Shown here: positions 31,135-48,333 of the stretch, in pieces
Layout: every line of letters starts with the position of its first letter
Position numbering within the stretch: the first letter of the stretch is position 1
Virus record (IMG/VR): IMGVR_UViG_3300047160_018490
Location: 13,903-77,902 of that record
DNA: 64,000 nucleotides
Origin: a virus
Taxonomy: Duplodnaviria; Caudoviricetes
Direction: 5' to 3' (one strand)
Notes under the pieces: model-generated
Seen by the model: only the letters and a program-made list of their open reading frames with translations
Databases searched by the model: none
What the model was told of the DNA's origin: nothing
Made by a program: the position numbers and the translations under genes

Positions 31135-33075
31135 TCAGGCTCTTCCCCCTGTGACTTGCATGATCTTCCTCCCCAGGGCCTGGATACGGGCGAGGACTTC
31201 AGGGGCGATCCTTCCCTTCACGGGGCGCCTCCGAGGAAGTGCTCTCCTTCCTGTACCCTTGCAGATGCGGCAGCCAGCTCCCTTGCAGGTGGCGCACTTG
31301 TCCATCTCGCCATCCCCTTCTTCCATGTCCTTCACCTCCTCAGCGAGGTTGGCAGGAGAGGGGCGCCTCTCCCTGGGGTTCATGAGGCCACCAGAGGGCC
31401 ACCCAGGGATGACATCCTTCAGCTCCTCGGGGTTGCCCTCATCTTGCAAGTTTACCCCCGCGCCCATCCCCTGGCGGAGAGCAGCCTCTCCTGGGTCTTC
31501 CAGGTTCTCGCCAGCGCCCATGCCTTGCCTCAGGAGGGCCTCTCCCGGGTTCTGGAGGTGCTCTACCTCCTTCAGCTCATCCGGGTTGCCTTCGTCCTCC
31601 AGGTGGGCTCCTGCACCCATTCCCTGCCTCAGGGCGGCCTCTCCTGGATCGGGGAGGTTCACGCCTGCCCCCTCTCCCTGGCGAAGGGCGGCCTCACCAG
31701 GGTCTTGCAGATGGGCATCCTGCCGGTCTTCGAGGTCCTTGGGGCGCCCTCTGGCTGGAGCGCCACGAGGGGGGGTCTGCCGCATGGGGACTCCTGGGCC
31801 CTTCTGCCTGATGAGGTAGGGCCGCCCATCCTTTCCCCAGCGAATCCTGTGCTTGAGGATGAACCATTGCAGCGTCTTGGGGTTCTGGTAGCGCTCCAGG
31901 ATCTCGTCATCGTCCTCGCTGCCAGGGGCTTCTCCAGCTCCACCTCCTGCGCCACCACCAGGAGGCTGATGCCCTTCCAGAGCTTCCTCTTCAGGAGTCT
32001 CCTCCCCTGCGAAAGGCTGGGCGTCACCGTGACCTCCCTCTCCCTGGTTGGTATCGAGGTCGCTGCTTCCAGGGGGCGCTGCACTTCCCTGTCCTTCAGG
32101 AGTATCTCTTCCTCTCTCCAGCTCCTCGATGGCTGCTCTCTCGATGGCCTCCAGCTCGGCCATCTGCTGCGGGTCCAGGTTACCTGCACCTGCCGCTCCC
32201 TGATCTTCTCCGCCCTGCACCACGCCATCCTGCTCACCAGGAGGAATTTCTGGCTGCCTCCCCGAGATGCCGAGGTCACCAGGAGGGATCTCTCCCTCCT
32301 CCACGCTGCCTTCTTCCCCTGGGTGGGCCTCATGGCCACCCTTCTCAGGATCGACCTCCAGGGCCTTGGAATACTTGCGCGTGTACCCCTTCTTGGCCTC
32401 TCCTCCAGGGGCGCCGATGCCGTGATGTTCAGAGAGGAGATTGCGCAGATGCTGCATGATGCCAGGGAGCTTGTCTACCCCCAGCTTCTGAAGCTCCTGA
32501 GCGATCTTGGGGTGATCCATCATCGGCAGGATATCCCGGATGTAGTCCACTCCTGTACCCAGGTGGTCGTGCAGGTCTCTGAGGACTCGCGCACTCTGCT
32601 TTACAGGAGTGGAGTCCCCTTTTCCTCCCTGAGAGGGGGTTCCTCCCCGGGGGGAAGGAGGGGTAGAAGGAGCAGGGCCCTTGATCTCATCTGGGGAGCC
32701 TACAGCCTTACCGCGGGTTCTGGTGGTCATCTGCTTGCCCTCTCTTACATTCCGGCCGAAGTGCATCAGTTCATGAGGCTCTGCGGTTGTCTCGTCACCC
32801 CACTCATCCCAGGAGCTGCGACGGCGGTTGTAGTGCGTCCTTATCTTGATACCACCTTCATGGGGCGGAACGCTATAGACTTCTCCGTACTCACCCCTGT
32901 AAGGGTGGTTTGTACCATAGCGGATATAGACTACATCTTCAGGGTTAAATTCTTGCCCCCCTGCTTCCTCTTCCTCCGGCTGCTTCTCCTGCTCGGGAGG
33001 CCACCTCTCCTCAGGGACCAGGTAACCTCCTGCGGCTCCTGAACTTTCATTGAGGGCCATCTTATTCTTCTCCAT
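31135..33075 (-). CDS. acidic, low-complexity scaffold/core-like head protein
   Basis: Start at ATG 33075 (MEKNK) or 33060 (MALNE). Begins with ALNESSGAAGGYLVP, and has DPGEAALRQG repeats, CxxCxGxGCxxCxGxG and a C-terminal amphipathic helix. Confidence 0.75.
   Translation of the reverse strand: MEKNKMALNESSGAAGGYLVPEERWPPEQEKQPEEEEAGGQEFNPEDVVYIRYGTNHPYRGEYGEVYSVPPHEGGIKIRTHYNRRRSSWDEWGDETTAEPHELMHFGRNVREGKQMTTRTRGKAVGSPDEIKGPAPSTPPSPRGGTPSQGGKGDSTPVKQSARVLRDLHDHLGTGVDYIRDILPMMDHPKIAQELQKLGVDKLPGIMQHLRNLLSEHHGIGAPGGEAKKGYTRKYSKALEVDPEKGGHEAHPGEEGSVEEGEIPPGDLGISGRQPEIPPGEQDGVVQGGEDQGAAGAGNLDPQQMAELEAIERAAIEELERGRDTPEGQGSAAPPGSSDLDTNQGEGGHGDAQPFAGEETPEEEALEGHQPPGGGAGGGAGEAPGSEDDDEILERYQNPKTLQWFILKHRIRWGKDGRPYLIRQKGPGVPMRQTPPRGAPARGRPKDLEDRQDAHLQDPGEAALRQGEGAGVNLPDPGEAALRQGMGAGAHLEDEGNPDELKEVEHLQNPGEALLRQGMGAGENLEDPGEAALRQGMGAGVNLQDEGNPEELKDVIPGWPSGGLMNPRERRPSPANLAEEVKDMEEGDGEMDKCATCKGAGCRICKGTGRRALPRRRPVKGRIAPEVLARIQALGRKIMQVTGGRA
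31411..31722 (-). repeat. intragenic repeat (A-A-B)x2
   Basis: A = (D/N)PGEA(A/L)LRQG(M/E)GAG, four copies; B = DEGNP(D/E)ELK, two copies. Confidence 0.85.
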
Positions 33076-36000
33076 AAAGATACCCATGAGGCAGGTGCTC
33101 ATAGAATGCAGCAATACTAGTCCTTGCCTCCTGGGTCAACTCATGCCAGGGGCGAGGGTAATTAGGATGGTTGGGGTCCTGAATGGGGTGGGCAGCCCTC
33201 GCGTTCTCCCAGCGAGTCATGGGATCTGGCTCGGCGTCGTTATGATATTCCTCTTCTGGCTGCTTCTCTACATCCCCTTCTAGAGCGTTCTCCTCCTCCT
33301 CTCCTCCCTCACCGAAAAGGGCGCCATGAGGTAGATGAGAGTAGAGGTCTGCTATGTGCCCTCTCTCACCTTGAGGCATCCTGTCCCAGGCAGCTCCGGG
33401 ACCAATCTCTGGGTAATGCTCGGCCAGGTACTCACTGGCTCTTCCATACCTCTCCGAGGGGTCGTTGTAGGGAGTCTCCGCGGGGAGGTGTTCTTCCTCC
33501 TCTTCTCCCTCTGCCTTCTCCCACTCCTCCCAGTAGGGATCTACCTTCTCCCCGGGGGAAGAGGAAGGAGGATGTTCCCACTCCTCCCAGTAGGGCTCGG
33601 AAGTAGGAGGCTTGGGGTTTCTGGCGTCATGCTCCCACGCCTCGTAGTAGGGATCGTGGGCGGCCTTCTCCTCCTCTTCTGGCTCTACCGTATGTTCAGA
33701 AGGATGAGGCCCTGGGTCGCCTACCATCTGGAAATACTGGCGGTTGGATTGTCTCTCTCCCTGAGACAAACCTTCCCAGGGAGTAAGAGGATGTTGAGGA
33801 TGCTGCTCTTCCCAGTAGCGCCTGTGAGACTCCCACCTCTCTTCAGGAGACCTGGGAGGGGGGTTAGAAGACTGCTTCTCCTCGTCTTCCACTCCCTCGT
33901 AGTATTCCTCACGCTCAAACGGCCCTGGGGTATGCTCCTCCCATTCGGGGTATTCCTCGTCCTCTGAGGCTTCAGAATGGTGCCTGGGGGTTGGTAGAGG
34001 GTGTCTGCAGCCTTCATGGTATCCCTGAGACATCTCGCTCCAGGTGGGGCGCACATGGACCCCTGGATTCAGCGCCTCCCGGTCTATGTCATGACGCCTG
34101 TGAGTTTCCCATACCTCATCCGGGGTGATACTGGCTTTTCCCTCCTCCAGAAATCTCTCATGCTCGCCTGGTTGATATTCCTCCCACTCAGGATACTCCA
34201 GGTGAGAGGGGTGTTCGGAGTGGTGGGCGGGTTCTGGATGAAAACCAGTCTCCGGGCTAACCCCTTGCAGGACATCTCTACCAGTTTGGGAAATTTCCTC
34301 CCAGGGCTCGCGGGGGCCGAAGTAGCCTATAGGATGGCGTCTTCGGAAGGATTCATACCAGTCATCGAGAGAACGGGGTGCCTTCTCCTCCTCAAAGTCC
34401 GAGACTACAGTAGCCTCCGCCCTGTGAGGACCCTCGTCCTCCTCGTGCGCGTACCTTGTAGCCTGACGGTCGCGGGTAGACTGCGAGAGTCCTTCCCAGG
34501 GCCTACCCTCTGACCCAGTCCTTCCATACCTCTCCTGGCTCTGATGGCGGGAGGTCTGGTAGCGCTCATCAGGAGTGCGGGGAGCTTTCTCTTCCTCTTC
34601 AGGGTATGCCCACTCAGGAGGCTCATTCTCTCCCAGAGGGCTTCCCCTCTCCCCTTCTCCTTCTTCCTCTTCTGGGGGGGTGTCCTCATCGTAGGGGTCC
34701 ACGTAGCCAGTATGCTGTCTCAGTCCAGCGTAATAGTCCCGCAAGTTTTGGTTGAGGTCACGCCAGTGGAGGCCGGTGGTTCCCCTTCTCCTGGCAGATT
34801 CCCACGCCTCGTCATGGGATCGGGGAGCTTTCTCTTCCTCAAGTGGCTCCCACTCAGGGTACTCCTGAATTTCGCTTTGCTCTGAGGGGTGGAAGCCAGG
34901 GTCCCTTACCATACCAGGCACGAGATCCCTCTGACCCTGGGTGAGATTCTCCCATTTTCTACCGCTGCCACTGCCTCTATCCTCTCTATATCTCCTCTCA
35001 GACTCCCACACCTCATCAGGAGCACGGCGGAAGGGCTGGCCTTCTTCCTTCCTCCTCTCCAGCCTCGCCTTCAGCCTCCTGTATTGCGGAGCTACCTTCT
35101 CCCCGATACCAGGTATCTGCTCGTTGATGCCAGGGCGAATATGAGCGGGAGGGCGAAGAGGAGCATCCTCTGCCTCGTTGATGGTCCTACCACGATTAAG
35201 CTCATCAGCATGTGCCTGAGCCTCCGCAAGAGTGTCGTGGTCCCCAGCGGAGCCAAAGAAGTAGGGGTGTTCCGGGTCAAATGTCCCCTCGGGGCCGAAG
35301 TGGGGGTGGAACTCGGTGGGGTAGACTCCATATCTCCCTGGCTGCTCGTGGTGTGGGCGAGCTTCATAGTAGGGGGCGCCTGGGTTGGCTGTAATGGCAG
35401 GATTCCCCTCTGGCTGCTTCTGTACCCCCTTCTCTGCGTCCAGCCTCCTGTAGCCAGCAGAGTGGGCCAGTTGGTAGTGCATGTCCCCAATCCAGTCATT
35501 GGCCTCATCAATGTTTTGGGCAACGAAGACGGGATCATGGGTCATCCCTGCTGGGTGCTGGGGAGAGCGGTGGACATCAAAGGTGCCTGGCTCATCCTCT
35601 CTCTCTACCATGTGATACCAGGTCGCCGGCCTGCCTGTGCGGAGGTCGTGGATGGCCTTCCCCTCGATGCCAGGGAGCTGCTCATTCCTCGCCGGTCTGT
35701 TCTGGACCCCTCTTCCACGCCTGGCCCTCGCAGTCCCTGTCATCGTGGCCCACATTCCCTCCTGGAGCCTCCGGGCATGGGCATGGGCCTCCTCGGCAGT
35801 CTGATGCGGTGGGAGCGGGTTCTGCGGGTTTTCTATGTTACGGCGAAGAGGATGGTGCTCGGAGGGGGTGACAGCATGAGCCCCTTCCTCAGTGGGCTCA
35901 ACATCCCAGTAAGGGTGCCCAGGGTTGGCCGTTACTACCGCGCCCTGCTCCTCCTCTCCTTCCACCTTGGGGGCCTTTTCCACCCCTTCTTCCAGAGCGT

Positions 36001-39000
36001 TTTCCTCTTCTTCAGGGGGTAAATGGAGATCGGGGTCCTCGTACATGCTTTCGTAATTACGCGCAATACCACCAGCATACTCTTCCGTCATGGGGCCAGT
36101 AACTGGGCCTTCTCCGTGGGAATGAAACGCTGGGTGTTCCCGCGTTCGATAGACGCTGTAGCGCCCTGGGCGAACTGGTGATAGCCTGGTCTCGTAGAAC
36201 CTGAGTTCTCCTGTCTTGGGGTCCGCCTTCTCTTCCACCCCCTCCAGACCCTTGTTGGGCTTCTCCCCTGCCTCCTCCAGCGAGGAGTAGCACACGCGAT
36301 GGGCTTTCCCCGCGTCTGCACCCTCTGCTTCCAGATCAGCGATGCAGCGCTCCATCCTCTCCGTGTGGTAGTGGTGGGGGTGCTCCACGTTGGGCTTCCG
36401 GATCTCTTCCCCTTCGAGGTCTTTCTCTTCCTCTGCTGGGTTGAGAGGAGTGCAGTTAGGAGAGAGGTGCGCCATCCGGTTGATGGACTCCTGGGCCCGC
36501 TGGTTCTGCCTCTCTGCCTCCTCTTCTGCCTCTGCCTGCGTGCAGTGGAGAGACCACCCCACTCCTGTACGGCGGGATGCTACCTGGTAAAGCTCCGGCT
36601 GCTCCTCGCTGGGGCGGACGTAGAAGTGTCCTGGGCTCTCTTCTCCTCCTTCTGCCTTCTCCCGGGGAATAGGAGATACCCTGTTCTCGTAGGGGTGGTT
36701 GAGGTCAGGGTTGTGACCCACCAGGAAGCGGTACGCAACACCTTGGACGCGCTTCCCTGTCTTGGGATCTACTGCTTTCTCCTCCTTACCCTGATCCCAC
36801 GCCTGGAAATACTGCTCGCCAGTCCAATGCCCTCTACCAGGATTGTCTGTATAGCGGTCAGCATGGGCATTCAACTCATCCGCTCGCTGCTGGGCTTCTT
36901 CGAGTTCATATCGGCCCACGTCGCGGTTTCCATCTGGATCGACAAGGGAGTGCGTGCCATCCTCATTGGGCACAACCCTCCAGTGGAGTGATTGCTTCCT
37001 TCTCTGCAAGCGGTCCCACAGCCTCTTGCACTTCTTCTCCGCGATGGTGCCACTCTCATCCTCTGGCACCTCCGTCTGATCTCCCCACTTCTCGAACTCC
37101 CTGACCTTCTCTGCTTCTGCCTCCGCCTCCGCCTGCGTCTGGTGAGAAGAGGTAAACCACACCTCCCCGTTGGCCCGTGTGTGCCGCACCAGGTAGGGAT
37201 ACACCGTCCTCCCTGGGCGGTAGATGACATCTACCTTCTTCTCCACTTCCAGTTCAGGAGTGTCCCCAGTTTCGATGTCCGAGCCCTCTCCAGGGTTAGT
37301 CTCGGGAGGGATGCCTGTTCTATCAATCTCTCCAGGAGTGCCCCTTCCTGCTTCCATGTCGGCCTGGTTGGCGTCCTTCTCAGAGGGGTGAGGTGTCTCG
37401 TCTACTACTCCCATACTCCCGTGCCGCCAATTCAATTGGCTTGTGCAGTACCTTACCTCCTCTGGGGTGGCAGCGTAGTAGACATGCCTACCAGTGCGGG
37501 CATGAACGATCTCATAAGGGAGGTGCTCTATACCCGTTCTCCTGGCCTCGTAGAGGGGCTCGTCCTGGCCTGTAAGGGGGTCTTCTGTACTGTCCTTCTC
37601 TTCAGGAGCAGGGAGGTTGACTCTCGGGTTATCGGGCCCTTGCAGCTCGCCACTCATGATCCTCTGGTGGGCAGCCTCCTGGTAATCGCGGGCCATATCC
37701 TCCGCTTCCCAGTGGGGGTGGAGGTGAGATGCCAGGCGCCCTCTACCGCCCTCTGGATGAGATCCAGTCCTATATAGAGCGTCGAAGTCCTCAATGCTGG
37801 GATGCTCCCGCAGTTCATAGAAGGGCTCCATCTTCTCCCCCGTCTTGGGGTCCAGGGCCTTCTCCTCCCTCTCCGGCTCCATCTGGTACCGCGGTGGCGT
37901 GCCTTCGGTATCCCGGACCCACTGGCGGTTTTCCTCTGCATGCCTGTCCTGCATTGCCAGCTCGTCCAGGGAGTTCTCGGCAAACTGCTCTACCTGCCTG
38001 TGGGCCTCTTCAGGAGTACGGAACCCCCCTGTGCGCAATCCAGCCTGTCCTAGAGGGTGCTGCTCCGTGCGGACGATCTGGTAGGCGCCAGGGATGTGTG
38101 GGTCCTCCTCCACGCGCCACCAGGGATGATTCTGCTTCTTCATCTCCTTGTTAGGCGCCCAGATCGTCTCCAGCAGGTTCTCCTCCGCAATGTGAGCAAT
38201 CGTCTCCGCCTCGTGCTGCGTCCTGTAGCCAGTCAGGCTTCTCGCATCCCTGCCCTCGGGGTGGAACATGGTAGGGATGACATCGAAGGTCCCTGGGTTC
38301 TCCTCGCTCTCCTGGACGTGGTAGAAGGACTTTTCCACTGCTCCTGAGAGAGCATTCTCCTCCTCTGCAGGGATGTTGGCCGCCTCCGTCCTCTGCTGGC
38401 TTACCAGATTGGCGTAGTGCCTCCTGGTGGCTTCCTGCTGCCTGGCGTGCTGAGTGGCCCATCTCGCTCCGGCGGCGGCCTCCTCATGAGATGTGTAGCC
38501 ACCAAAGCCTGAGTAGCGCCCTGCCCTGCCATGAGGATGGTGCTCCGAGTAGTGAAGGTCATACCTCTCAGGGTCGTCCTCGTTCTGCTGCACCGTGAAC
38601 CAGGGAGGAGAGGTGTCTTTACTCACACTACCTCCTGCAACCTTCTGGCTCTCTTCCCAGGTAGCCTGATCCATACGGGACTGGACGGTGTCCTCGTGCA
38701 TATCTCTGGCAAGTTCCCTGGCCTCTTCCGGAGTGAGGTGTCTGTGCGGTACTCGGTCTGAGGGATATTGGTGGATATTGGGGTGGTCAGGGGTCCGAAA
38801 GATCCGTGGGCGCCCGTTTTCGTCCCTGACTCCGTAGTAGGGCTTATCGTGGAAGCCCTTCTCCTCCTCATTCCTTCTGTGGATGTCCTCTGTCCTCAGA
38901 GAGACATTCTCTGCGAGCTGTGCCTGGATGCGGTCTATGACTTCCTGGGCCTCCTGAGTGGAGGTGTAAGGGCCACCACCCCAGATGGGCTTGCCCTGAT

Positions 39001-42000
39001 GGTCTCTGCCACCCAAGGGGTGCTCGTCCGTCCTCCAGATGTCATGGGTGCCTGGTACGTTGGGGCGCTCCACAATCTTGTACCAGGGCGGGCGGTCTTT
39101 TCTCACTCCTGAAGAGAGGGCATCCTCGTGGTGCTGTGGGGCATCCCACTGCTCGGGGTCTTCATTTCTAGACCATTCCAGTTGCCGTAACCCGGCTTCG
39201 GCACTGGCTTCCTCCCTGGAGTCACGGGTTGTGAGGGGGTAAGACATCAGTCCAGGAGTGGCGTAGGGATGGTGCTCACTCCTGTAGACTCCCCATCTCC
39301 CTTCAGGGGTCTGGCGGACGTGGAAGTAGCGGTATCCTTTCTCCACTCCTTCGGAGAGGGCATGTGTAACAGGAAGACCATGTCCATGACCGAGGTCATC
39401 CGTTCTTACCTTCTCCAGGTCCTGTGCGCCATCCAGGGCGTCTTCCTCGGTGTCATAGCGGGTGGGTCCCACGGGAATGGTTTGATCCCCAGACTGGAAG
39501 AAGGGATGAGACTCAGTGCGGAAGATTCCATAACCCTCCTGATAGGGCTTGACCTCGAAGAAACCCTTCTCCACTCCTGAAGAGAGAGCAGCCTGCAAGT
39601 ATTGAGGTGGGGGATGGTGTAGCGCCCTATCTTTGATACTCTCCGTTGTATCTTCCACCAGAGACTGAGCCTCTTCCCTGCTTCCCAGGAGGTAAGTGTT
39701 TACCCGCATTCCAGGTCTTCCCCAGGGATGGTGTGCAGTACGGTAAACACTCCAAAAAGTCGGGTGGTCCTCGTCTTCCCGTGCCTCGTACCACGGGCCT
39801 TGCTTCTCCACCCTCTCCTCTAACCCCCTTGCTATCCTTTCCCCCGGGGGAAGCATGGAGAATGGATGCTCTCTGGGGTTGCCTGTGCCTCTGGGGGCGT
39901 CATCATACTCCGGGCCCAAAGACTCCATGTGCCTGGCCCAGTCTCTGGCCTCTCCGTGATCCAGGAAGGAGAGATGAGAGTGCCTCACTCCTGAAGGGGA
40001 GACAACCTGGAAGTGACCCATATCCGGGTCATGCTCCACGCTCCACTTACCGGATGGTTTGTCTTCTATTGGAGGGACGTAGGGGGCGGTGGCGCCTGTG
40101 CTCTCTTCTTCCTTTCCTTTCTCCACACCTCCAGAGAGGGAGTTCTCCTCGACCTGGAGAGGGATGTCACTGATCCCTGGTTCTTCTTCACCGCGCCACA
40201 GGTCGTACTGTCTCTGCCCAGCAGCGATCCAGGCATCCTCGTGGCTGGCATGGGTGGAGAGAGGCGCCTCATCAGGCCCATGAGGGCCGTATGGGTGGCG
40301 CCCACTTCGGTAGACTCCATACCCTCCTTCTGGGGTTGGGAGGACCAGGTAGTGGCTGTAGTTCTTCTCCACCTCTTCTCCCTGATAGACGATGGAGCCG
40401 TATGTGCCCTCAGAAGGCTCCGTCTGGCCGCCGAGGGAGTTCTCCTCGATGTCCGGAACATTCACGCCCCTGTTTTTTCCCTCCTTGTACCAACCATCTA
40501 CTGCGTCCTGGAGTCTGTCTGCTCTCTCCTGCTGCTCTTCCAGAGTGTTGGGACGGAAGGGGGTTATTCCCTCTCCCATAGGATGGTGCTCAGTACGATA
40601 TAGCAGGTACAGCTTACCACCTGGGTTCTGTACAATCCGGTAGTAGGGCCTCTGGAGGGCTTTCTCCACTCCCTCCAGGGCGTCCTCCAGATCCATCCTC
40701 TCCATGAGGGTCCTGTGTGTCTGATCGTGCAGCCTCTGGGCTTCTTCCTCGGCAAGACCCTGGGTGGTATGGTCTGGAGACTCGGGAGAGGAGAGTCTTC
40801 CCTTGGGGTGGTAGGAAGACCTCCATACGTCGTAGTTCCCAGCCGGGCGCTGGTGGACCTCGTAGAAGTAGTGTGGGGATAGGTCCTTCTCCACACTGCC
40901 TTCCAGGGCATTCTCCTCATAGGCTGGAAGGCCCTGCCCCATGCCCAATCTCTCTGTCTGCATCCTCACCTCGCTAGCCGTTAGCTCGCGTGCCATGTCG
41001 TGGGCAGAACCCTCCTCAAGGCCTCCGATGATAACCATTCCTGCGTCACCACCTGGGTGGGTGGCAGAGCGGCGGACCTCGAACTGACCCTGGCGCCGGC
41101 CTTCGTGGACCTCATAGTAAGAAGGTGGTTCAGGAGTACCCTCATCTTTCTGCACACCTCCCTCCAGAGCGTGCTGCACAGGAGGGGTGTAGGGGAGGCC
41201 CTGACTCTGGCCTGCCCAGTCTGTCTCTATGCTACGAGAGCGTGCAAACCTTCTCGTCCTCTCCTGTGCGTCTGCCTCTGCCTGCTCTGGATCCTGGAAG
41301 TGGGTGATCCTGGCCTCTCCATAAGGGTGCTGGGAGGTACGCCACACCTCATGCCTCTCCCCTCTGGAGCGGACCTCGTAAAGGGGAGGAACTCCGGTGT
41401 CTTTCTCCACCCACCCAGAGAGGGAGTGCTGCACAAGGGGTGTAGGTGGTAGACCCTGCTCTCTTCCCAGTCTGGACGTGTCCATGTTCTGGTAGCGAGT
41501 GGCCCCCAGACGGTAAATATCACTTATAGTCCTGGCACGTTCGCCTGCCTCTTCCTGGGTTGAGTAAGGACCCATACCAAGGTCCTCCCCACGAGAGGGA
41601 GCGTAGGGGTGCTCCTGAGAGCGGCGAACACGCCATCCTTCTCCCTCCACCTCGTAGGGCTCATAGAACTGGGGGAGCTTCTCCAGGGCGGTGGCTACCT
41701 CCTCAGGAGTGGCACCAGCTTTCTCTATACTTCCTTCCAGGGAGTATTGCTGTATGTGAGGGGGTTGGTTGACTGGTAGACCCTGGTTTTGCCCCAGTTC
41801 GTCTGTCAGTCTCCGCTCCCACCTTCCTGCGTAGTGCCTGGCATCCTCTTCCAGGTGAAACCTGGCCAGGGGGGAGTCTCCGTGTTCGCCAACCATCGAG
41901 GTTGCATTCCAGGGGTGGTTTGCTGTCCGGAAGACGCCATAGCCGCCCGCATGCGGGCGGACCTCGTAGAAGGACTTTTCCACGCTGCCTTCCAGGGCGT

Positions 42001-42229
42001 TCTCCTCTGGAGCTGGTGTCCTCCGGTGGCCGCCTTGGTTCACGTTTGCCTTGTCCTCATCCTCGTAGCTCTCATCGAGCTGCCTGGCTGCTTCCCTTGC
42101 AGCATCCTGCCCCCAGCGTGCAGGAAAGACCATGCTCTCCCCCATATAATGCAGGGCCGTCCTCCAGACCTCCCAGCGCCCTGCTTCCTGGTTGTAACGA
42201 GGCTCATAGGTAGGAGATGCTTCACTCAT
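33062..42229 (-). CDS. giant 3055 aa modular repeat protein, putative internal-head polyprotein
   Basis: Single uninterrupted ORF. About 25 modules of YEVR..x..YGVYR(T/S)..HP...T.EEA...A and about 8 modules of P(D/E)E.W.....W..L.Q..R, joined by ..(A/S)LEG.VEK or EEEK linkers. Confidence 0.9.
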   Translation of the reverse strand: MSEASPTYEPRYNQEAGRWEVWRTALHYMGESMVFPARWGQDAAREAARQLDESYEDEDKANVNQGGHRRTPAPEENALEGSVEKSFYEVRPHAGGYGVFRTANHPWNATSMVGEHGDSPLARFHLEEDARHYAGRWERRLTDELGQNQGLPVNQPPHIQQYSLEGSIEKAGATPEEVATALEKLPQFYEPYEVEGEGWRVRRSQEHPYAPSRGEDLGMGPYSTQEEAGERARTISDIYRLGATRYQNMDTSRLGREQGLPPTPLVQHSLSGWVEKDTGVPPLYEVRSRGERHEVWRTSQHPYGEARITHFQDPEQAEADAQERTRRFARSRSIETDWAGQSQGLPYTPPVQHALEGGVQKDEGTPEPPSYYEVHEGRRQGQFEVRRSATHPGGDAGMVIIGGLEEGSAHDMARELTASEVRMQTERLGMGQGLPAYEENALEGSVEKDLSPHYFYEVHQRPAGNYDVWRSSYHPKGRLSSPESPDHTTQGLAEEEAQRLHDQTHRTLMERMDLEDALEGVEKALQRPYYRIVQNPGGKLYLLYRTEHHPMGEGITPFRPNTLEEQQERADRLQDAVDGWYKEGKNRGVNVPDIEENSLGGQTEPSEGTYGSIVYQGEEVEKNYSHYLVLPTPEGGYGVYRSGRHPYGPHGPDEAPLSTHASHEDAWIAAGQRQYDLWRGEEEPGISDIPLQVEENSLSGGVEKGKEEESTGATAPYVPPIEDKPSGKWSVEHDPDMGHFQVVSPSGVRHSHLSFLDHGEARDWARHMESLGPEYDDAPRGTGNPREHPFSMLPPGERIARGLEERVEKQGPWYEAREDEDHPTFWSVYRTAHHPWGRPGMRVNTYLLGSREEAQSLVEDTTESIKDRALHHPPPQYLQAALSSGVEKGFFEVKPYQEGYGIFRTESHPFFQSGDQTIPVGPTRYDTEEDALDGAQDLEKVRTDDLGHGHGLPVTHALSEGVEKGYRYFHVRQTPEGRWGVYRSEHHPYATPGLMSYPLTTRDSREEASAEAGLRQLEWSRNEDPEQWDAPQHHEDALSSGVRKDRPPWYKIVERPNVPGTHDIWRTDEHPLGGRDHQGKPIWGGGPYTSTQEAQEVIDRIQAQLAENVSLRTEDIHRRNEEEKGFHDKPYYGVRDENGRPRIFRTPDHPNIHQYPSDRVPHRHLTPEEARELARDMHEDTVQSRMDQATWEESQKVAGGSVSKDTSPPWFTVQQNEDDPERYDLHYSEHHPHGRAGRYSGFGGYTSHEEAAAGARWATQHARQQEATRRHYANLVSQQRTEAANIPAEEENALSGAVEKSFYHVQESEENPGTFDVIPTMFHPEGRDARSLTGYRTQHEAETIAHIAEENLLETIWAPNKEMKKQNHPWWRVEEDPHIPGAYQIVRTEQHPLGQAGLRTGGFRTPEEAHRQVEQFAENSLDELAMQDRHAEENRQWVRDTEGTPPRYQMEPEREEKALDPKTGEKMEPFYELREHPSIEDFDALYRTGSHPEGGRGRLASHLHPHWEAEDMARDYQEAAHQRIMSGELQGPDNPRVNLPAPEEKDSTEDPLTGQDEPLYEARRTGIEHLPYEIVHARTGRHVYYAATPEEVRYCTSQLNWRHGSMGVVDETPHPSEKDANQADMEAGRGTPGEIDRTGIPPETNPGEGSDIETGDTPELEVEKKVDVIYRPGRTVYPYLVRHTRANGEVWFTSSHQTQAEAEAEAEKVREFEKWGDQTEVPEDESGTIAEKKCKRLWDRLQRRKQSLHWRVVPNEDGTHSLVDPDGNRDVGRYELEEAQQRADELNAHADRYTDNPGRGHWTGEQYFQAWDQGKEEKAVDPKTGKRVQGVAYRFLVGHNPDLNHPYENRVSPIPREKAEGGEESPGHFYVRPSEEQPELYQVASRRTGVGWSLHCTQAEAEEEAERQNQRAQESINRMAHLSPNCTPLNPAEEEKDLEGEEIRKPNVEHPHHYHTERMERCIADLEAEGADAGKAHRVCYSSLEEAGEKPNKGLEGVEEKADPKTGELRFYETRLSPVRPGRYSVYRTREHPAFHSHGEGPVTGPMTEEYAGGIARNYESMYEDPDLHLPPEEEENALEEGVEKAPKVEGEEEQGAVVTANPGHPYWDVEPTEEGAHAVTPSEHHPLRRNIENPQNPLPPHQTAEEAHAHARRLQEGMWATMTGTARARRGRGVQNRPARNEQLPGIEGKAIHDLRTGRPATWYHMVEREDEPGTFDVHRSPQHPAGMTHDPVFVAQNIDEANDWIGDMHYQLAHSAGYRRLDAEKGVQKQPEGNPAITANPGAPYYEARPHHEQPGRYGVYPTEFHPHFGPEGTFDPEHPYFFGSAGDHDTLAEAQAHADELNRGRTINEAEDAPLRPPAHIRPGINEQIPGIGEKVAPQYRRLKARLERRKEEGQPFRRAPDEVWESERRYREDRGSGSGRKWENLTQGQRDLVPGMVRDPGFHPSEQSEIQEYPEWEPLEEEKAPRSHDEAWESARRRGTTGLHWRDLNQNLRDYYAGLRQHTGYVDPYDEDTPPEEEEGEGERGSPLGENEPPEWAYPEEEEKAPRTPDERYQTSRHQSQERYGRTGSEGRPWEGLSQSTRDRQATRYAHEEDEGPHRAEATVVSDFEEEKAPRSLDDWYESFRRRHPIGYFGPREPWEEISQTGRDVLQGVSPETGFHPEPAHHSEHPSHLEYPEWEEYQPGEHERFLEEGKASITPDEVWETHRRHDIDREALNPGVHVRPTWSEMSQGYHEGCRHPLPTPRHHSEASEDEEYPEWEEHTPGPFEREEYYEGVEDEEKQSSNPPPRSPEERWESHRRYWEEQHPQHPLTPWEGLSQGERQSNRQYFQMVGDPGPHPSEHTVEPEEEEKAAHDPYYEAWEHDARNPKPPTSEPYWEEWEHPPSSSPGEKVDPYWEEWEKAEGEEEEEHLPAETPYNDPSERYGRASEYLAEHYPEIGPGAAWDRMPQGERGHIADLYSHLPHGALFGEGGEEEENALEGDVEKQPEEEYHNDAEPDPMTRWENARAAHPIQDPNHPNYPRPWHELTQEARTSIAAFYEHLPHGYLYGEE

Positions 42230-45200
42230 ACCCCTATCCTCCTTGCGAGGGCCTCGATGCGATGGAGGAGTTCAGGAGAGAAGGCTTTATCAGATGGCTT
42301 TGGGGTTTCTCTGTACTGCCGGTTGTGACGCTCCACCCAGTCCAGGAGCCCACCCAGGTGACTCGACTGTGACCACAAGGCTTCACCACTGGGCCTGTGG
42401 ATGATCTGGTAGAGGCCACTCAGGTGAGACTCCTCATGGGGACGCACCTCGTAAATGTCCTCTGGGTCCTCTACCCAGGTAATATCTTTGGGGTCCACCT
42501 TCTCTATGCTCTTCTCCTCCTCCACCTCTCTCTGAAGGCTCCTGATGGTTGCGCCTGGGCCCTGGGGGATTTCCTCTGCCCGCAGAGGTCTCCTTCTTGG
42601 GGCGCCTCCTCCTGCTTGCGGTAGAGGAGGAGGAAGAGAAGCAGGAGAAGGAGGTGGAGTCTTCTCTGGGGCGCGCCTATTCGTGTGCAGGAGGAGGTTA
42701 CTCGCTGCCTGGTTGTGCAAGTGGCTTACGTAGGAGTTGGCCCTATCCAGGGTGTCAGTCCTTACAGCCGGCTCATCACTGGCGCCCATAGGGTGATGTT
42801 CACTCCGGTGAATCCCGTACCCACCTTCTGGGTGGTCCCTTACCTCGTAGTAGGGCATCTCCGGTGGCCCTGGCTTCGATGCTGTGGACGGTTGTGGAGG
42901 CTCTTCTCCCTGACCCGCGCCCACGTCAAAGGGCGCGTCCTCAGGGTTCTGATGCACGAGCGCTGTGGGCTTGGCTGGACGGCGGGGTAGTGGTGGCGGT
43001 CCCTTCTGCAAGCTCTTCATGGTCTCTGCCTCTGTAGTGAGCTTGTTTGCCAGGGCCCTCTGGAGGCGGTCCCTGTTCTCTTCTGCTCTGTACCAGTCCG
43101 TCCACGCTCCTACGGGTGGGCCACCAGTAGGGGGTGCTCCTGAAGGGTGATTGGAGGTCCTGAAGACCCCGAAGCGGTCGTTCTCCGTGGGATGGGGGAG
43201 GACCTCATAGAGGGCGGGGAAGTCCTTCTGGATGGCCTTGTGGTACTCGGCGGTATCGGCTGTCTCATCAACGTAATTGGCATGGAGTCCCCTGGCAAAT
43301 CGGTGAGCCTCCTCTTCCGTTCCCGTATCTAGGATCGGATACCCCTCTCCAACACCGTAGGGGTGGCTTTCCGTGCGGTAGACACCAAACTTACCATTCT
43401 TCATAGGGCGGACCTCATAGTAGAGGGCCTTCCTGGCTGCCTTATGCTCTTCCTCCCGGACAGTGCGCAGGTTCATGTAACGGGCGTGCATTGCGCGGGC
43501 ATACTCTGCAGCCTGTGCCTCATGATCCGTCTGATAGACCGGCGCCTCTTCAGGACCCCAAGGGTGAGTGTCTGTACGATAAACTCCATACAGGGGAGGG
43601 TCATCATTGGTAGAGCGGACCTCGTAGATGAGTTTCTTCCTCACTCCCTTTTCAGGAGTAGACTCTCCTCCCTCCCATGCCCGCAGAGTGCCTGGGGCGT
43701 CCCAGTAGGCACAGCAATTCCTCTTGTTGACTGGCTGACCCTTGATGCGCTTCTCCTGGCAGATGCCGCCCTGGTTGTACTGGCAGTTACCGCAGTTGCT
43801 GCCCTCCACTCCTTCCCCGTAGGTGATGAAGTCCGCCGCCTGTAGAGCTTCAGAGGAGACCTGGGGAAGCTCGCCACCCTGGGTATCGAGGGCCTTCCTC
43901 GTTTCACTTGGAGAGCCTTCGGCGGACTTCCCGATCTCGTCAAGGATAGCGTGTGTATCTAGATAGCGAGCATGAAGACGCCTGGCTTCTGCGTAGGCTT
44001 CCTCCTCCGAGTGTGTTTCATAGATGGCATAAGGGTACTGCTGCTGCTGCGGGTGGCTTGGCGAGCGGTGGACTCTGTAAAGGGTAGAGCCCTCATCAGG
44101 AGGCCGCACCTCGTAGATGAGGGCCTTCTCCACCACATCCTTCTTGCAAGGGCATGCCTTCCCCCTGGAGCAATTCTTGCAGCCGCAGGAGCCCTTGAAA
44201 TGTTTTGGAATGCGGTGGAGGAACCCTGGATTGTTCTCTGAGTGCTCTCCTACAGGGTCCTCGCTCTCTTCAGGATGGGGAATAAGATCCTCTGGAGGGT
44301 CTATACCCTGAAGTGCTTCCCCAAACGTGGGAGACCTTGTGTCACCTTCCAGCCTGGCCAGTTCCCGAGAACGCCGAGCTATCCTAGCCTCCTCGGATGC
44401 AGAGGTATACTGAGGATCATATACCCAGTCTCTTGGGTGTCCGGACCCGAAAGCCCATTCCCTTTCATCTGTGGCAAAACCTTCTGGGGTGTATTCGTTA
44501 TGATGAGGTCCCACCCCTTCTGGCCTGTCTGCCTTTCTTAAACCTTTCTTGTCCTCTCCAGAAGTAGGAGGGTCCACATCACCTTCCAGCACCTCTCTCG
44601 CTTGCATCTCCCGAGAACGCTGATTGATGCGAGCCCTTTCACTAGCCATGCTGATTGGGGGAATATCGTGGCGCCATTCCTCTGGATTGGGGCCATAGGG
44701 AGGGTGCCAGTCCCAATCTTCCTCATGCTCACCAACAGTGCCCCATTCCGGGTCGTGCTCTGGCCTCCCTATCTCGTTGGGGTCTGGCTCAGGCTCAGAG
44801 GCCGCCTTCTCCTCGGGACCCTCTATCTTGTCCAGGTCCTCGGCCCTTCGGTTGATCCTCTCCATCTCCTCTTCAGGAGTACCCTTGGGATCACGCTGCC
44901 ACTGGTGAGAAGAGGACTCTCCGTAATCCCTGCTGGCCCGATCTGCGGTTGCCTGTGCCTGCTCCAGAGTAGTGCCAGGTGGCTGAGGTATGTCGTGTCC
45001 ATACTCAGTGTGTCTGATGTAGGTCCCGCCATTTGGGTACTGCCCCGCAGCCCAGCGCCCCTTCTGGAGGTCCTTCTCCTCCTCCTCGATGGGTCTCCCC
45101 TGCTCGTCTGTATCTTCCACAGCCCTCAGTGTCCCTGAGAGACGGTTTATCCTCTCCGTCTCTGCTTCATGAGTGGTGGGTGGTGCATTCCCCCCAATGA

Positions 45201-48200
45201 ACTCGAATGCTCCAGCCATGTGCCTCTGGTTCCCGCGATCTGCCTGCTGTTCTGCGGCTTCCTGGTTGGCAATGCCCTCATGGACTCGATTGCCAGTGTA
45301 GGTGTCCTGTATGTACCACTGGCCGGTGCCATCGTTGTAGGGTTGAGCCCTGTAGCGAGGAGCCTTTCTCACAGCCTTCTCCTCGGGCTCACTTTCATCC
45401 AGCTCCTCTGAGTGGCGTGCAACCCTCTCTGCCTCCTCCTGGGGACTACTCAATGGCTCTCCCTGCCAGGAGGAGGCCGGGTGAGATTCCATCTCGTGGA
45501 GCTTGTTAGCCCTGTCTGCACTGGCCTGGGCTGCCTCTCTCCCTCCTGGGTGAGGGTGGTTCCAACCTGTGTGTGAGTCATGGATGACAGTCCCGTGCCG
45601 CGGGTGGTCCTGAACTATGTAACGCTGCTTCTCTACCACCCCTCTCTCAAAAGGGGAGGGGCCCTCTCTTCTCCCTCTCTTCAGGCCCTTCGCCATCACC
45701 CCAGGGTAGCCCAGCCTTCCTCTCTCCCCGCGAGAGCGAAGGGGGTTGTAGTTGCTGCCCTCCAGTTGCAGCCTCGTGATGAGTTCCTTCTGCTCCTCCA
45801 CCTTCTTGAGGGCCTCCATGAGGGCCTTCTCAGGAGGTAGCCCATCGTGCTCTGAGAGGGACTCAGCAAACTTGGCAAGCTCGTAGCAGTGTGCTCCGGA
45901 ATAGCCTTCCGTCTTCGCCACCGCATGAGAGAGATGTTTAGGTGTGACCTTGGGCAGCCACTTCCTCAGCATCTCACTCCTGGCCTTCACCGTGGGGAGC
46001 CCAAACTCCAGCACGTCATGGAACCTCCCAGGGCGGTCAATGAGGGCATCTGGAAGGGACTCAGGGAAGTTGGTCGTTAGTACGGTAAGGACACCCTTGC
46101 TCCTTGCAATACCGTCCATCTCCGTCTTGAGGAGGTCGATGGTGGTGGGGTGAAGCCAGTTGTCAACGTCCTCCATGCAGATGATGGCCGGTGCCAGTTC
46201 CTTCGCCATCTCGAAGGCACTACCAATACCACCTACACTCCCAGCGGCGTGGAAGTCCCTGCTAGAGATCCAGATGAACGTGCCCTTGCTCTTGTTGCGC
46301 AGCACCCGCGAGGACATCGTCTTGCCAGTGCCTGGAGGGCCGGTAAGGATCACGCCTCTGTTGGCAAAGAGGATGCCCTTCTCATTGAAGAGATCCAATG
46401 TCCTTCTAAGGGAGGTCTTGTTGTGCTCCTCCAGGAAGACATCGTCCCAACCCTCCTCCGTGCGGGGGAGAAACTCCCCTGAAAGAGAGAAGGCTTCTCC
46501 TTTGAGGAAGTTATTCTCCCTCGCCCAGGTCCATGCTTTATCAATCACCTCCTGAGAGATGGGAGCTTCCTGAAGTCTGGTAAAGGCAGTCACCTTCAGC
46601 CCGTTCCAGGTGGGCTCGAACTTCAGGACGAACTTCTCTCCACTACCTCGAAAGGCGTTGTGAGGCCCTCTACCTTTCTCCTGGTAGAGAGGGCTTCTTC
46701 CCAGGATGCCCTTCCTGATCTGCAATGGCATGCCCCTCTTGATAGGAAGCATCCCCTCGAAGAAGGCTGTCCCCTGCACGAGGAAGGTATCTCTTTGGGT
46801 GGAGTTGAGCTGGATGGTCTCGTAGACAGGGGGCGCCTCCATGCCCTTGCTCTGGTAGCCCTCCTGGAAGTTCCTCACCTCTACCAGCTTGTACCCAGAG
46901 ACTGCGTGCTTGAGGCCAGTGAGGAAGGAGCCCAGTCTGGGAGAGGGAATGAGGGCGGTGTTCTGGACGAGGTCCTTTATCTCACATCCCAGGTACTTGG
47001 CCGCCACCCGGTAGATGACAGAAGCACCCACAGGAGGGGCATCCTCCATCTCCACTCCTGTATCGAAGGAGTCGAAGATAGAAGGGAGGGCCTTGTTCCA
47101 GCGCTCCCTTTTCCTTACCTCTCTCCCGGGGGAAATAGCATGCTCATGGTGTGGCTCATCACCCCAGTTGTACTCCTCTTCCTCCTCGGGGTCGAAGTGA
47201 GACATCCCCCCTTCCATTGCATCACTGGCACAGTCGTCACAGAAGTGCGCCTGGTCACTGGGCTCATCGTACTGGGGGTTGTACATGCGGGTGGTAGCAG
47301 GCCGGGTGCAGGCTCCTGAATGGTGGGGGCAGCCTGGGTCGTCACACTCGCAGGTTCCGAGGTTCTCATGTTCAGGAGTGTGTTGACCTCTGGAGCGCAG
47401 GAGTTGCTCCTCACCCTCGATGGGGATGGCGCCCTTCTCTACCTGCTTCTGAATGCAGGAAGAGGGGGAAGACTCCTGACCTTTCGTAACGATGGTGCTG
47501 CAAGGGACGCAGACGCCGCTGGGAGTCTCGCACCATCCATTCCAGCAACCAGATGCCTTTGCACAGTAGGGGAGCCACGCCTTCTGAAGCCTGGGAGACA
47601 TCCAGACCTTCTCCTGGTCATAAGCGTCCCTGATGGCTCCCTGGTTGCTTCCTACCCCTACCACAGACCATTCTGTAACGTCATACCTCTTGAAGAGCCA
47701 CCCAGGCGGCATGAGAGGAGGATGCTGCGGGTGGGCCTTCCCGCTATCGAAGTCCTTCAGACCATAGTGCTCTCCTCGCTCCCTCCTGTAGGCTTCGATG
47801 GGCACGAAGGCGATGCTGGCAGCGGAGAGTATCCTTCTCTTCACCTTGCCATAGATGAAGTCCGCATCCGGATCAGCGCGATCAAAGTAGCCTACTGCAC
47901 GTATCCGGTTCTCTTCAGGATAGACAGTGATGCGCCCATCGGGGGAGCGAGATACTCCAATAGGGATCTCCCACCCCTGCTGCTGGTGGCCGAAGAAGAT
48001 GACCGGGTTGCGTGCGTAGTTCTCCAGTTGGGCGCCCAGAGGCACCACCACGTCACCATCCCTATCCTCATCCAGGTTGGTGATGACGAAGGGGATGCTG
48101 CCTTCGTCATCGTTTGCTTCCCCTGGGAGAGCAGCTCCTGGAGTAACGAGGCCGAGGGTGTTTTCCTTCCCAAGCTGGACCCAGGAGTAGGCGGAGAGGG

Positions 48201-48333
48201 CCTTGGGAAGGGAAATGACCCCCCTCCGCGTCATCTCCTGGAGGGAGGTGTAGCGGTCCTGAACCTTGTCAATGACTGGGTGGAGGATAATAGGAGAGCC
48301 CTCAAGGAGAAAAGTGGGCAAAGAGGCTCGCAC
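42226..48333 (-). CDS. HK97-type prohead serine protease fused to an AAA+ ATPase and repeat modules (2035 aa)
   Basis: Protease: DRDGDVVVP, NPVIFFGH (His), LSAASIAF (Ser), EWSVVGVGSNQGA. ATPase: GVILTGPPGTGKT, IICMEDVD, TTNFPESLPDALIDRPGRF. The C-terminal region carries YEVR..YRT..HP modules. Confidence 0.9.
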   Translation of the reverse strand: MRASLPTFLLEGSPIILHPVIDKVQDRYTSLQEMTRRGVISLPKALSAYSWVQLGKENTLGLVTPGAALPGEANDDEGSIPFVITNLDEDRDGDVVVPLGAQLENYARNPVIFFGHQQQGWEIPIGVSRSPDGRITVYPEENRIRAVGYFDRADPDADFIYGKVKRRILSAASIAFVPIEAYRRERGEHYGLKDFDSGKAHPQHPPLMPPGWLFKRYDVTEWSVVGVGSNQGAIRDAYDQEKVWMSPRLQKAWLPYCAKASGCWNGWCETPSGVCVPCSTIVTKGQESSPSSCIQKQVEKGAIPIEGEEQLLRSRGQHTPEHENLGTCECDDPGCPHHSGACTRPATTRMYNPQYDEPSDQAHFCDDCASDAMEGGMSHFDPEEEEEYNWGDEPHHEHAISPGREVRKRERWNKALPSIFDSFDTGVEMEDAPPVGASVIYRVAAKYLGCEIKDLVQNTALIPSPRLGSFLTGLKHAVSGYKLVEVRNFQEGYQSKGMEAPPVYETIQLNSTQRDTFLVQGTAFFEGMLPIKRGMPLQIRKGILGRSPLYQEKGRGPHNAFRGSGEKFVLKFEPTWNGLKVTAFTRLQEAPISQEVIDKAWTWARENNFLKGEAFSLSGEFLPRTEEGWDDVFLEEHNKTSLRRTLDLFNEKGILFANRGVILTGPPGTGKTMSSRVLRNKSKGTFIWISSRDFHAAGSVGGIGSAFEMAKELAPAIICMEDVDNWLHPTTIDLLKTEMDGIARSKGVLTVLTTNFPESLPDALIDRPGRFHDVLEFGLPTVKARSEMLRKWLPKVTPKHLSHAVAKTEGYSGAHCYELAKFAESLSEHDGLPPEKALMEALKKVEEQKELITRLQLEGSNYNPLRSRGERGRLGYPGVMAKGLKRGRREGPSPFERGVVEKQRYIVQDHPRHGTVIHDSHTGWNHPHPGGREAAQASADRANKLHEMESHPASSWQGEPLSSPQEEAERVARHSEELDESEPEEKAVRKAPRYRAQPYNDGTGQWYIQDTYTGNRVHEGIANQEAAEQQADRGNQRHMAGAFEFIGGNAPPTTHEAETERINRLSGTLRAVEDTDEQGRPIEEEEKDLQKGRWAAGQYPNGGTYIRHTEYGHDIPQPPGTTLEQAQATADRASRDYGESSSHQWQRDPKGTPEEEMERINRRAEDLDKIEGPEEKAASEPEPDPNEIGRPEHDPEWGTVGEHEEDWDWHPPYGPNPEEWRHDIPPISMASERARINQRSREMQAREVLEGDVDPPTSGEDKKGLRKADRPEGVGPHHNEYTPEGFATDEREWAFGSGHPRDWVYDPQYTSASEEARIARRSRELARLEGDTRSPTFGEALQGIDPPEDLIPHPEESEDPVGEHSENNPGFLHRIPKHFKGSCGCKNCSRGKACPCKKDVVEKALIYEVRPPDEGSTLYRVHRSPSHPQQQQYPYAIYETHSEEEAYAEARRLHARYLDTHAILDEIGKSAEGSPSETRKALDTQGGELPQVSSEALQAADFITYGEGVEGSNCGNCQYNQGGICQEKRIKGQPVNKRNCCAYWDAPGTLRAWEGGESTPEKGVRKKLIYEVRSTNDDPPLYGVYRTDTHPWGPEEAPVYQTDHEAQAAEYARAMHARYMNLRTVREEEHKAARKALYYEVRPMKNGKFGVYRTESHPYGVGEGYPILDTGTEEEAHRFARGLHANYVDETADTAEYHKAIQKDFPALYEVLPHPTENDRFGVFRTSNHPSGAPPTGGPPVGAWTDWYRAEENRDRLQRALANKLTTEAETMKSLQKGPPPLPRRPAKPTALVHQNPEDAPFDVGAGQGEEPPQPSTASKPGPPEMPYYEVRDHPEGGYGIHRSEHHPMGASDEPAVRTDTLDRANSYVSHLHNQAASNLLLHTNRRAPEKTPPPSPASLPPPLPQAGGGAPRRRPLRAEEIPQGPGATIRSLQREVEEEKSIEKVDPKDITWVEDPEDIYEVRPHEESHLSGLYQIIHRPSGEALWSQSSHLGGLLDWVERHNRQYRETPKPSDKAFSPELLHRIEALARRIGV

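Follow-up and report, generated by a model that had tools for sequence, protein, structure and literature searches.

What is a protein of 3055 amino acids (aa), assembled from strings of small diverged modules, doing among the head genes of a tailed phage? The question is raised by the open reading frame (ORF) here called P0001, which lies in a 64,000-nucleotide (nt) stretch of viral DNA (Duplodnaviria; Caudoviricetes) that we analysed as a whole and refer to as the window; it comprises bases 13903-77902 of the 77.9-kb IMG/VR virus record IMGVR_UViG_3300047160_018490 (CheckV completeness 77%). Every head gene of the window is on the minus strand, in the order portal, two small genes, P0002, P0001, P0005, further small genes and two capsid genes, which places P0001 between the protease gene and the capsid genes, where scaffold genes usually sit. 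The ATG of P0001 overlaps the TGA of P0002 (ATGA) and is preceded by AGGAGG 8 nt upstream, while P0005 starts (MALNESSGAAGGYLVP) one base past the P0001 stop; because of this overlap and one-base gap the three genes were taken to be translationally coupled, and the coupling of the ORF to the protease gene, already proposed in an original prediction made from the letters alone, was thus confirmed. The same prediction had seen in P0001 a packaged precursor cut by the prohead protease into a library of same-fold variants. Our own reading, which we hold with somewhat more confidence than doubt, is that P0001 together with the C-terminal 1150 aa of P0002 would constitute a capsid-cargo polyprotein, which the P0002 protease would cut behind the lysines of the linkers. 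The proteins and arrays concerned are as follows.

33062-42229, minus strand: P0001, the 3055-aa ORF, with an ATG start
42226-48333, minus strand: P0002, a 2035-aa protease/AAA+ protein
31135-33060, minus strand: P0005, a scaffold-like protein
35168-42214, minus strand: first-type array of P0001 (aa 6-2354), 22 modules of 53-69 aa
36632-37651, minus strand: degenerate zone (aa 1527-1866), 3-4 short variants without the HP loop, weakly supported
33083-35032, minus strand: second-type array (aa 2400-3049), 8 copies, most separated by EEEK↓A (↓, predicted cut)

A hidden Markov model (HMM) of the first-type module, grown from regular-expression seeds, recovered 22 strong modules in P0001 and 5 in P0002, with domain E values of 1e-14 to 1e-21 and a single weaker exception, the copy at aa 1867-1921 (9e-9). 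A six-frame search of the whole record with this HMM revealed no modules outside P0001 and P0002. The array is therefore not confined to positions 33062-42229, as first described, but continues into P0002. About 25 first-type modules had been predicted for P0001; the 22 strong ones bear this out, and a further 6-10 or so degenerate copies are weakly supported (hhalign E 5e-4 to 0.07). By eye, copies that lack the His-Pro loop were recognised at aa 724-809 and 1546-1815 of P0001 and at aa 900-1180 and 1950-2012 of P0002. The linkers between first-type modules measure 10-40 aa and mostly end in (V/E)(E/Q)K. Pairwise identity between modules averages 25% (range 10-48%), and adjacent copies are no closer to each other than distant ones. 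A recent tandem duplication was considered and rejected, given this lack of a neighbour effect and DNA repeats of at most 62 nt.

Despite this divergence the modules do form one family with one confidently predicted fold, as had been supposed: the 27 copies fall into a single HMM and, used as an alignment, yielded an AlphaFold2 model with a predicted local distance difference test (pLDDT) score of 93, in which three strands (residues 4-8, 14-18 and 33-35) are followed by a helix (38-60). Near-invariant positions are Tyr3, Val5, Val17, Arg19, Thr/Ser20, His23, Pro24, Gly26, Ala42 and Ala46. Histidine amounts to 5.6% of P0001 (6.7% in the modules) and to 4.7% of the C-terminal part of P0002, as against about 0.4-3.4% in other proteins of the phage; we note that the nearly invariant His23-Pro24 pair lies within these His-rich modules. 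The second-type modules, estimated beforehand at about eight, numbered exactly 8. Their consensus is APRSPDExWESxRR...PWExLSQGxRD, and each copy is predicted to fold as a mini-domain of ~40 aa (helix, hairpin, helix) that runs into an acidic, disordered tail (pLDDT 70).

The evidence that carries our reading comes from the segments between the modules. The recurring linker proved to be real: the full pattern [AS]L[ESG][GSE]x0-1[VIT][EQRS][KE] occurs 13 times in P0001, against 0.016 occurrences expected in shuffles, and 0 times elsewhere in the window. The linker is also the best-conserved DNA of the array, with 14 copies of a 36-nt family. Part of the excess of the 9-mer ACTCCTGAA is a by-product of this repeated linker, since its copies at 39102-39133, 39570-39601 and 39984-40015 sit within linker codons (…LSSGV…). 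The full linker copies are located as follows.

41975-41998, minus strand: linker core ALEGSVEK (aa 78-85)
41720, 41402, 41147, 40886, 40661, 40118, 39566, 39338, 39098, 38330, 35975 and 33263 (lower coordinates), minus strand: the other 12 copies

Lysines are concentrated in these linkers. Within aa 1-2354 of P0001, only 9 of 1292 module residues are Lys (0.7%) vs 55 of 1062 linker residues (5.2%; Fisher p 1.2e-11), and Arg makes up 9.4% of the module residues. Glu precedes 38 of the 78 lysines, where 11 would be expected, and the commonest residue after Lys is Ala; half of all lysines stand in an E-K context directly ahead of a module. The bias is not genome-wide, because the other proteins of the phage contain 3-6% Lys. 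A halophile-type proteome was also considered as the source of the acidity and low lysine content and was rejected, as those other proteins have, besides this normal Lys content, an ordinary isoelectric point.

The linker lysines resemble the predicted maturation site of the capsid proteins of the same phage. A matrix built from the 7 residues ahead of the module-preceding Lys was used to score ~940 Lys sites outside P0001. All top six sites were within head-module proteins, including VLPGQVQK↓AAMGETSG of capsid protein 2 at rank 3 and QIEKAVEK↓MARTPAG of capsid protein 1 at rank 5. In the capsid alignment, the Lys that matches K103 of HK97 is invariant in both paralogues and in the relative L009, the respective sites being RRK↓TALAEGSG (capsid protein 1), VQK↓AAMGETSG (capsid protein 2) and VRK↓TALAEGSG (relative); in all three it precedes (T/A)A(L/M)xE(G/T)SG..GGY. 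The HK97 gp5 sequence reads FNK↓SLGSDADSAGSLIQP, and its cleavage takes place between K103 and S104. Moreover, the homology of a Singulisphaera prophage capsid begins exactly at Lys188 of capsid protein 1. The capsid genes and sites are:

22476-24029, minus strand: capsid protein 1, HK97-fold, 517 aa
21016-22170, minus strand: capsid protein 2, HK97-fold, 384 aa
21934-21936, minus strand: Lys79 of capsid protein 2, predicted maturation site VLPGQVQK↓AAMGETSGAVGGYLVP (matrix rank 3)
23466-23468, minus strand: Lys188 of capsid protein 1, NERRK↓TALAEGSGQTGGYLIP, an invariant column in the capsid alignment
23865-23867, minus strand: Lys55 of capsid protein 1, in a propeptide-like N-terminal region (matrix rank 5)

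A further line of evidence is the architecture of P0002, in which first-type modules share a reading frame with the protease, following the AAA+ domain and preceding a C-terminal tail found throughout the clade. From its N-terminus to its C-terminus, P0002 is made up of the protease, the AAA+ domain, variant modules, 5 first-type modules and the C-terminal tail:

47635-48081, minus strand: HK97-type prohead protease region (aa 85-233; phrog_80 E 1.2e-8)
45790-46395, minus strand: AAA+ ATPase (aa 647-848; PF00004 E 5e-16; nearest models PAN/Cdc48/FtsH)
44134-45636, minus strand: variant hairpin-plus-helix units (aa 900-1400), split by EEK or VEK sites
42688-44118, minus strand: five first-type modules (aa 1406-1882), identified with the HMM
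42229-42285, minus strand: C-terminal tail ending in LHRIEALARRIGV, a candidate capsid-targeting signal

Compared with HK97 gp4, P0002 gave a BLASTP E of 7e-7, with FFGH aligned to the catalytic His. The C-terminal tail (...RIEALARRIGV, ...RIQALGRKIMQV, ...IDLARGRIS, ...EEAERITGVV) recurs in P0002, in P0005, in the relatives and in a planctomycete prophage protease-scaffold fusion. We regard it as a candidate targeting signal because the C-terminal part of the HK97 protease directs this enzyme into the prohead. P0005 ends in the same tail, and its central part matches the C-terminal portion of a relative's AAA/scaffold protein. P0005 also carries (31435-31707, minus strand) five tandem motifs of ~20 aa, PGEAALRQGMGAGVNLxD, some of them followed by NPEELK; a homology between this repeat and the P0001 linker was entertained from a likeness seen by eye and dropped, as the linker HMM gave it no support.

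Taken together, these data suggest the following course of events. The chains would be made alongside the head proteins from the coupled genes and would enter the procapsid, P0002 probably by means of its C-terminal tail. The N-terminal HK97-type serine protease of P0002 would then cut after the final Lys of the linkers, at L-x-G-x-V-[E/Q]-K↓ or, in the second-type zone, at E-E-K↓, and cutting would free ~45-50 folded mini-proteins of 40-110 aa, which, being acidic, His-rich and nearly Lys-free, would survive the protease. Cutting in silico at every Lys divided P0001 into 35 pieces of at least 40 aa and yielded a further 14 such pieces when applied to the C-terminal part of P0002. These predicted products are 40-107 aa long and all but two are acidic; the net charge of the modules ranges from -9 to +1. 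They would be small enough, in principle, for the tail channel. Packaging, cutting and the fate of the products, whether ejected with the DNA or pushed out, are inferred. A DNA-condensing, histone-like role was discarded in view of the acidity of the predicted products. We advance, much more tentatively, a bolder proposal: that ~45 Lys-free, protease-proof mini-proteins of a single diversified fold, loaded by way of two coupled genes, are freed in the capsid by a Lys-specific HK97-type protease and enter the cell with the DNA as a panel of host-directed, e.g. anti-defence, binders. The purge of lysines might in addition guard the mini-proteins from lysine-directed attack by the host.

It should be considered that several observations weigh against the processing that we propose. 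No recognisable copy of the clade C-terminal tail is present in P0001, which we see as the chief weakness of the model. As to the protease, its match is a weak one (TIGR01543 E 1.3e-3, below the cut-off) and its Ser motif, ASIAF, was read by eye. P0001 has a net charge of about -250, which resembles that of expelled scaffolds and counts against its products staying beside DNA. The exact scissile bond is ambiguous, since the linker sequence ALEGS is similar as well to what stands on the P' side of the capsid site (ALAEGSG). The capsid proteins retain 3-4% Lys and yet must survive the protease; a lysine by itself is thus not sufficient for a cut, and the modules could be poor in Lys for another reason. 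Finally, the phage is known from one uncultured contig. The proposal of a protease-processed, packaged precursor consequently stands in part: P0001 has the look of a substrate, with Lys confined to the linkers, a P side like that of the capsid site and modules fused to the protease, but it lacks the clade tail and its products would be acidic.

The origin of the arrays was addressed by means of peptide-pattern scans of IMG/VR, which recovered two capsid relatives and ten loci with an AAA/scaffold gene (27-64% identity). The closest relative, L009, whose capsid is 64% identical, encodes a 507-aa protease and a 1210-aa protein, directly followed by the capsid gene. The N-terminus of the 1210-aa protein matches aa 411-860 of P0002 at 66%, and its later part matches P0005. 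Four K↓ASVDEP(F/Y) sites were found in the AAA/scaffold protein of L009. Modules were absent from the 10 related AAA/scaffold loci and from 5 whole related records, all of these records being fragments. The relatives' loci carry no modules, and for this reason the arrays, as judged from these alignments, are an insertion of ~4200 aa that is specific to this lineage and separates the AAA domain from the scaffold-like part, not the ancestral scaffold; the scaffold-like part has, on the same comparison, become a gene of its own, P0005. A link between the modules and a larger genome was tried and rejected, as the CheckV-based expected sizes of the relatives, which are rough, are also ~90-120 kb.

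Beyond these relatives, the nearest cultured capsid relative is that of Streptomyces phage Dagobah (34% identical), and the only two cellular capsid matches were a prophage-like region of Singulisphaera acidiphila (37% from residue 188) and, more weakly, a Rhodoblastus metagenome-assembled genome. No prophage relatives of the AAA part were found in GTDB genomes. In the Singulisphaera acidiphila region (NC_019892, L028:8081-10969), an HK97-type protease is fused to a DELEEDE-rich acidic stretch; the fusion ends in the clade tail ...EEAERITGVV, and the next gene encodes a capsid protein with K↓DMAEGSGATGGY. This region gives a weak hint that the wider group has planctomycetes among its hosts.

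The likeliest alternative to a cargo polyprotein is an expanded sacrificial scaffold or core, in which the modules would be bulk that builds up the procapsid core and would be cut only so that the pieces exit through the capsid pores on DNA entry, with no later role. The genes do occupy the scaffold position between protease and capsid genes, and the array lies between the AAA domain and P0005, which are one protein in L009. The strongly acidic composition is like that of known scaffolds, and the charge would favour expulsion on DNA entry; conservation, moreover, is restricted to fold-core residues in modules that are on average just 25% identical. However, the modules are missing from all ten relatives that have these head genes and are thus not needed for assembly in the clade, a throw-away scaffold has no reason to purge Lys from its folded parts, and known scaffolds are helical or disordered, unlike arrays of small folded domains. 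On balance we consider this explanation rather unlikely. We consider it most likely that the modules serve as accessory internal head proteins and not as an assembly scaffold, because relatives assemble heads without them while the ancestral scaffold part persists as P0005, and because a disposable scaffold does not need Lys-free folded parts. The alternative of the original prediction, that the variants act as a capsid core, therefore appears less likely if an assembly scaffold is meant.

We assign still less weight, and call it unlikely, to the possibility that P0001 remains uncleaved as a giant structural protein of repeated domains (a ruler or tether inside the particle, or a fibre or decoration on its outside), with Lys-rich linkers serving, for example, for cross-linking, modification or flexibility. 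Phage fibres and decoration proteins often take the form of beads on a string, and the tail common to P0002, P0005 and the relatives is missing from P0001. Against this, the P side of the linker matches the capsid maturation site, first-type modules are also fused to the internal protease, the gene belongs to the protease-scaffold-capsid block and not to the tail block, and no Ig-like, FN3, fibre or other family match was obtained. That the modules act on the assembly machinery, being substrates of the fused AAA+ unfoldase/protease, setting its pace or inhibiting it in a kind of maturation timer, instead of having a later role as products, would agree with the presence of a PAN/Cdc48-like AAA+ domain in one chain with protease and modules, and with a J-domain gene just upstream that is absent from that position in L009; we nevertheless regard it as very unlikely, as modules are lacking in relatives that possess both the AAA+ domain and the protease, the module model shows nothing like a degron or inhibitor, and 45 diverged copies would be left unexplained. 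Least credible of all is that the repeats are a runaway expansion without function, or the ORF an assembly error. The array is indeed found on a single contig, without relatives, but its frame stays open for 9.2 kb, identities of 10-48% together with DNA repeats of at most 36-62 nt exclude assembly collapse or recent slippage, and the fold-core residues and linker sites are kept in all copies.

Homologues of the modules were then sought in sequence and structure libraries. P0001 gave no Pfam, PHROG or NCBIfam family match, including any Ig-like, FN3 or fibre domain. The module profile, run against 1.84 billion representative proteins, returned 5 matches at E 5e-5 to 5e-4 and none below 1e-10; of the three that were read, two were short hairpin repeats and one was an unrelated repeat protein. 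The three short matches are each the sole member of their own cluster. P0008 and P0010, from this search, are proteins of 112-132 aa from metagenome-assembled genomes (one of Thermodesulfobacteriota). They consist of 4-5 tandem hairpins, PDYEVRxGKIYRTxxHPxG, corresponding to the first half of the module without the helix. No match was found for P0001 among 5.8 billion clusters, for the second-type profile among longer proteins, or for 17 modules in a tblastn search of 50,697 phage records. Peptide and DNA-pattern scans of IMG/VR disclosed no module homologue, and the linker pattern had 5 matches in JGI metagenomes, all of them by chance.

Structure-based searches gave a similar picture. The ESM Atlas offered no usable match, a PDB sequence search none, and Foldseek against the PDB only E values of at least 1.6. 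VIA Z scores of up to 5.3 were obtained for generic three-strand-plus-helix domains (HicB N-terminal domain, AP2, lambda Int arm, YegP), with no family standing out; those for AP2 and the lambda Int arm (3.9-4.1) were no better than those of unrelated rows. Many small uncharacterised phage proteins in BFVD matched at E 0.02-0.3, which is at most suggestive. DUF2188 (PF09954) has the same topology, and one module of 27 reached 13.2 bits (cut-off 22) over model positions 7-53; in a per-module scan one module scored E 0.062. These results indicated that the module is a new small fold family without detectable relatives in the libraries searched.

The remaining head genes considered here are the following.

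57178-58578, minus strand: large terminase
50981-53317, minus strand: portal
49723-50994, minus strand: 423-aa protein without a family match
49070-49720, minus strand: J-domain protein (DnaJ, PF00226 E 3e-20)

The 423-aa protein holds ranks 1 and 6 in the linker-matrix search, with PPEEEVEK↓QP and LMGGEVEK↓QP, both sites being followed by a similar segment, ...AGT.G.RG.NNP.S..GR...; going by these sites, it is probably a further substrate of the protease. The J-domain gene sits between the portal gene and P0002, a place taken by a DNA methylase gene in L009, and its product might recruit host Hsp70 to fold the giant chains, although this is a single case. As for the two capsid paralogues, which are 40% identical, the shorter capsid protein 2, with its short propeptide, may be the vertex protein, by analogy with T4 gp24 as against gp23. 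Capsid protein 1 carries a Pro/Arg-rich N-terminal extension of ~33 residues (23931-24029, minus strand; TRTPPPPQRRPAGAPPGGPGYQPQQPPRPP), absent from the 64% identical capsid of L009; that it serves as a docking site for the acidic cargo is speculation.

Two giant proteins of ~45 small, acidic, lysine-free domains thus take up ~12 kb of the head-gene operon. If they are cut as their sequences suggest, tailed phages can deliver head cargo as polyproteins, and a single substrate would give an unusually clear view of the specificity of an HK97-type protease, with dozens of natural sites and the Lys-free modules as a built-in negative control. Any function of the modules, within the head as cargo or as part of its core, would be new to biology, and the linker could serve as a portable cut site to load foreign proteins into HK97-like capsids.

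Among known systems, HK97 gp4/gp5 and the P2 gpO-type fusions share with P0002 the protease fold family and the conserved His motif, and HK97 gp5 resembles the capsid proteins described here in the predicted cut after Lys, directly before the capsid N-arm motif. Protease-scaffold fusions such as that of the Singulisphaera prophage likewise combine, in one chain, a protease with scaffold-like sequence and the C-terminal tail. Known fusions of this type, however, comprise a few hundred residues of helical or disordered scaffold, whereas here ~4200 aa of folded modules have been inserted between the protease/AAA and scaffold parts, over two genes, and an AAA+ domain is fused as well. The internal proteins IPI, IPII, IPIII and Alt of T4 provide a functional parallel, since they are small proteins that enter the prohead, undergo trimming by the head protease and, in T4, leave the capsid together with the DNA, as may hold in our case; the products predicted here, of 5-12 kDa, are also similar in size to T4 IPI*. 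The parallel drawn in the original prediction goes no further than function. T4 internal proteins are encoded by separate genes and each has an N-terminal targeting sequence that is cut after Glu in L/I-x-E by a gp21-type protease, whereas in this phage there is one chain, the protease is of HK97 type, the cuts are predicted after Lys and the products are acidic. No L/I-x-E sites were present in the module-junction linkers, and no N-terminal targeting peptide was recognised in P0001. The core-shell precursors pp220 and pp62 of African swine fever virus and the retroviral Gag are also loaded as one chain and cut by a viral protease at stereotyped junctions; they belong to unrelated lineages, with unrelated proteases, and give rise to distinct products, not to dozens of paralogous mini-domains.

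Our literature searches on polyproteins in tailed phages pointed to polyvalent proteins and to the processed head proteins of T4 and SPN3US as the closest cases, and those on HK97-type cleavage specificity to nothing closer. No description of tailed phages that deliver head cargo as polyproteins turned up in the literature searched or for any cultured phage, in keeping with the original prediction, which knew of no phage of this architecture. Two reports (PMC7411985, PMC10052503) describe how gp245 of the phiKZ-like phage SPN3US processes many head-internal proteins, some of them paralogous, and how such giants pack a large protein mass with their DNA, as may be the case here. According to these reports, they do so with many separate genes, a Glu-based motif, a T4-like protease and genomes of >200 kb, instead of the two polyproteins, ~100 kb genome and Lys-based sites of this phage. 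The polyvalent proteins of phages and conjugative elements (Iyer et al. 2017, PMC5512222) include giant chains of several domains in portal-terminase phages, which are predicted to be packaged in the head and are sometimes processed by a built-in peptidase. Such chains combine 2-15 differing effector domains that can be recognised (among them methylase-helicase, ART and ParB-like) with peptidases of the zincin type (PMC5512222), whereas no domain is recognisable in P0001, whose modules are all paralogues with one or two small folds between them. The module family, the lysine code and the scale of the arrays are particular to this phage.

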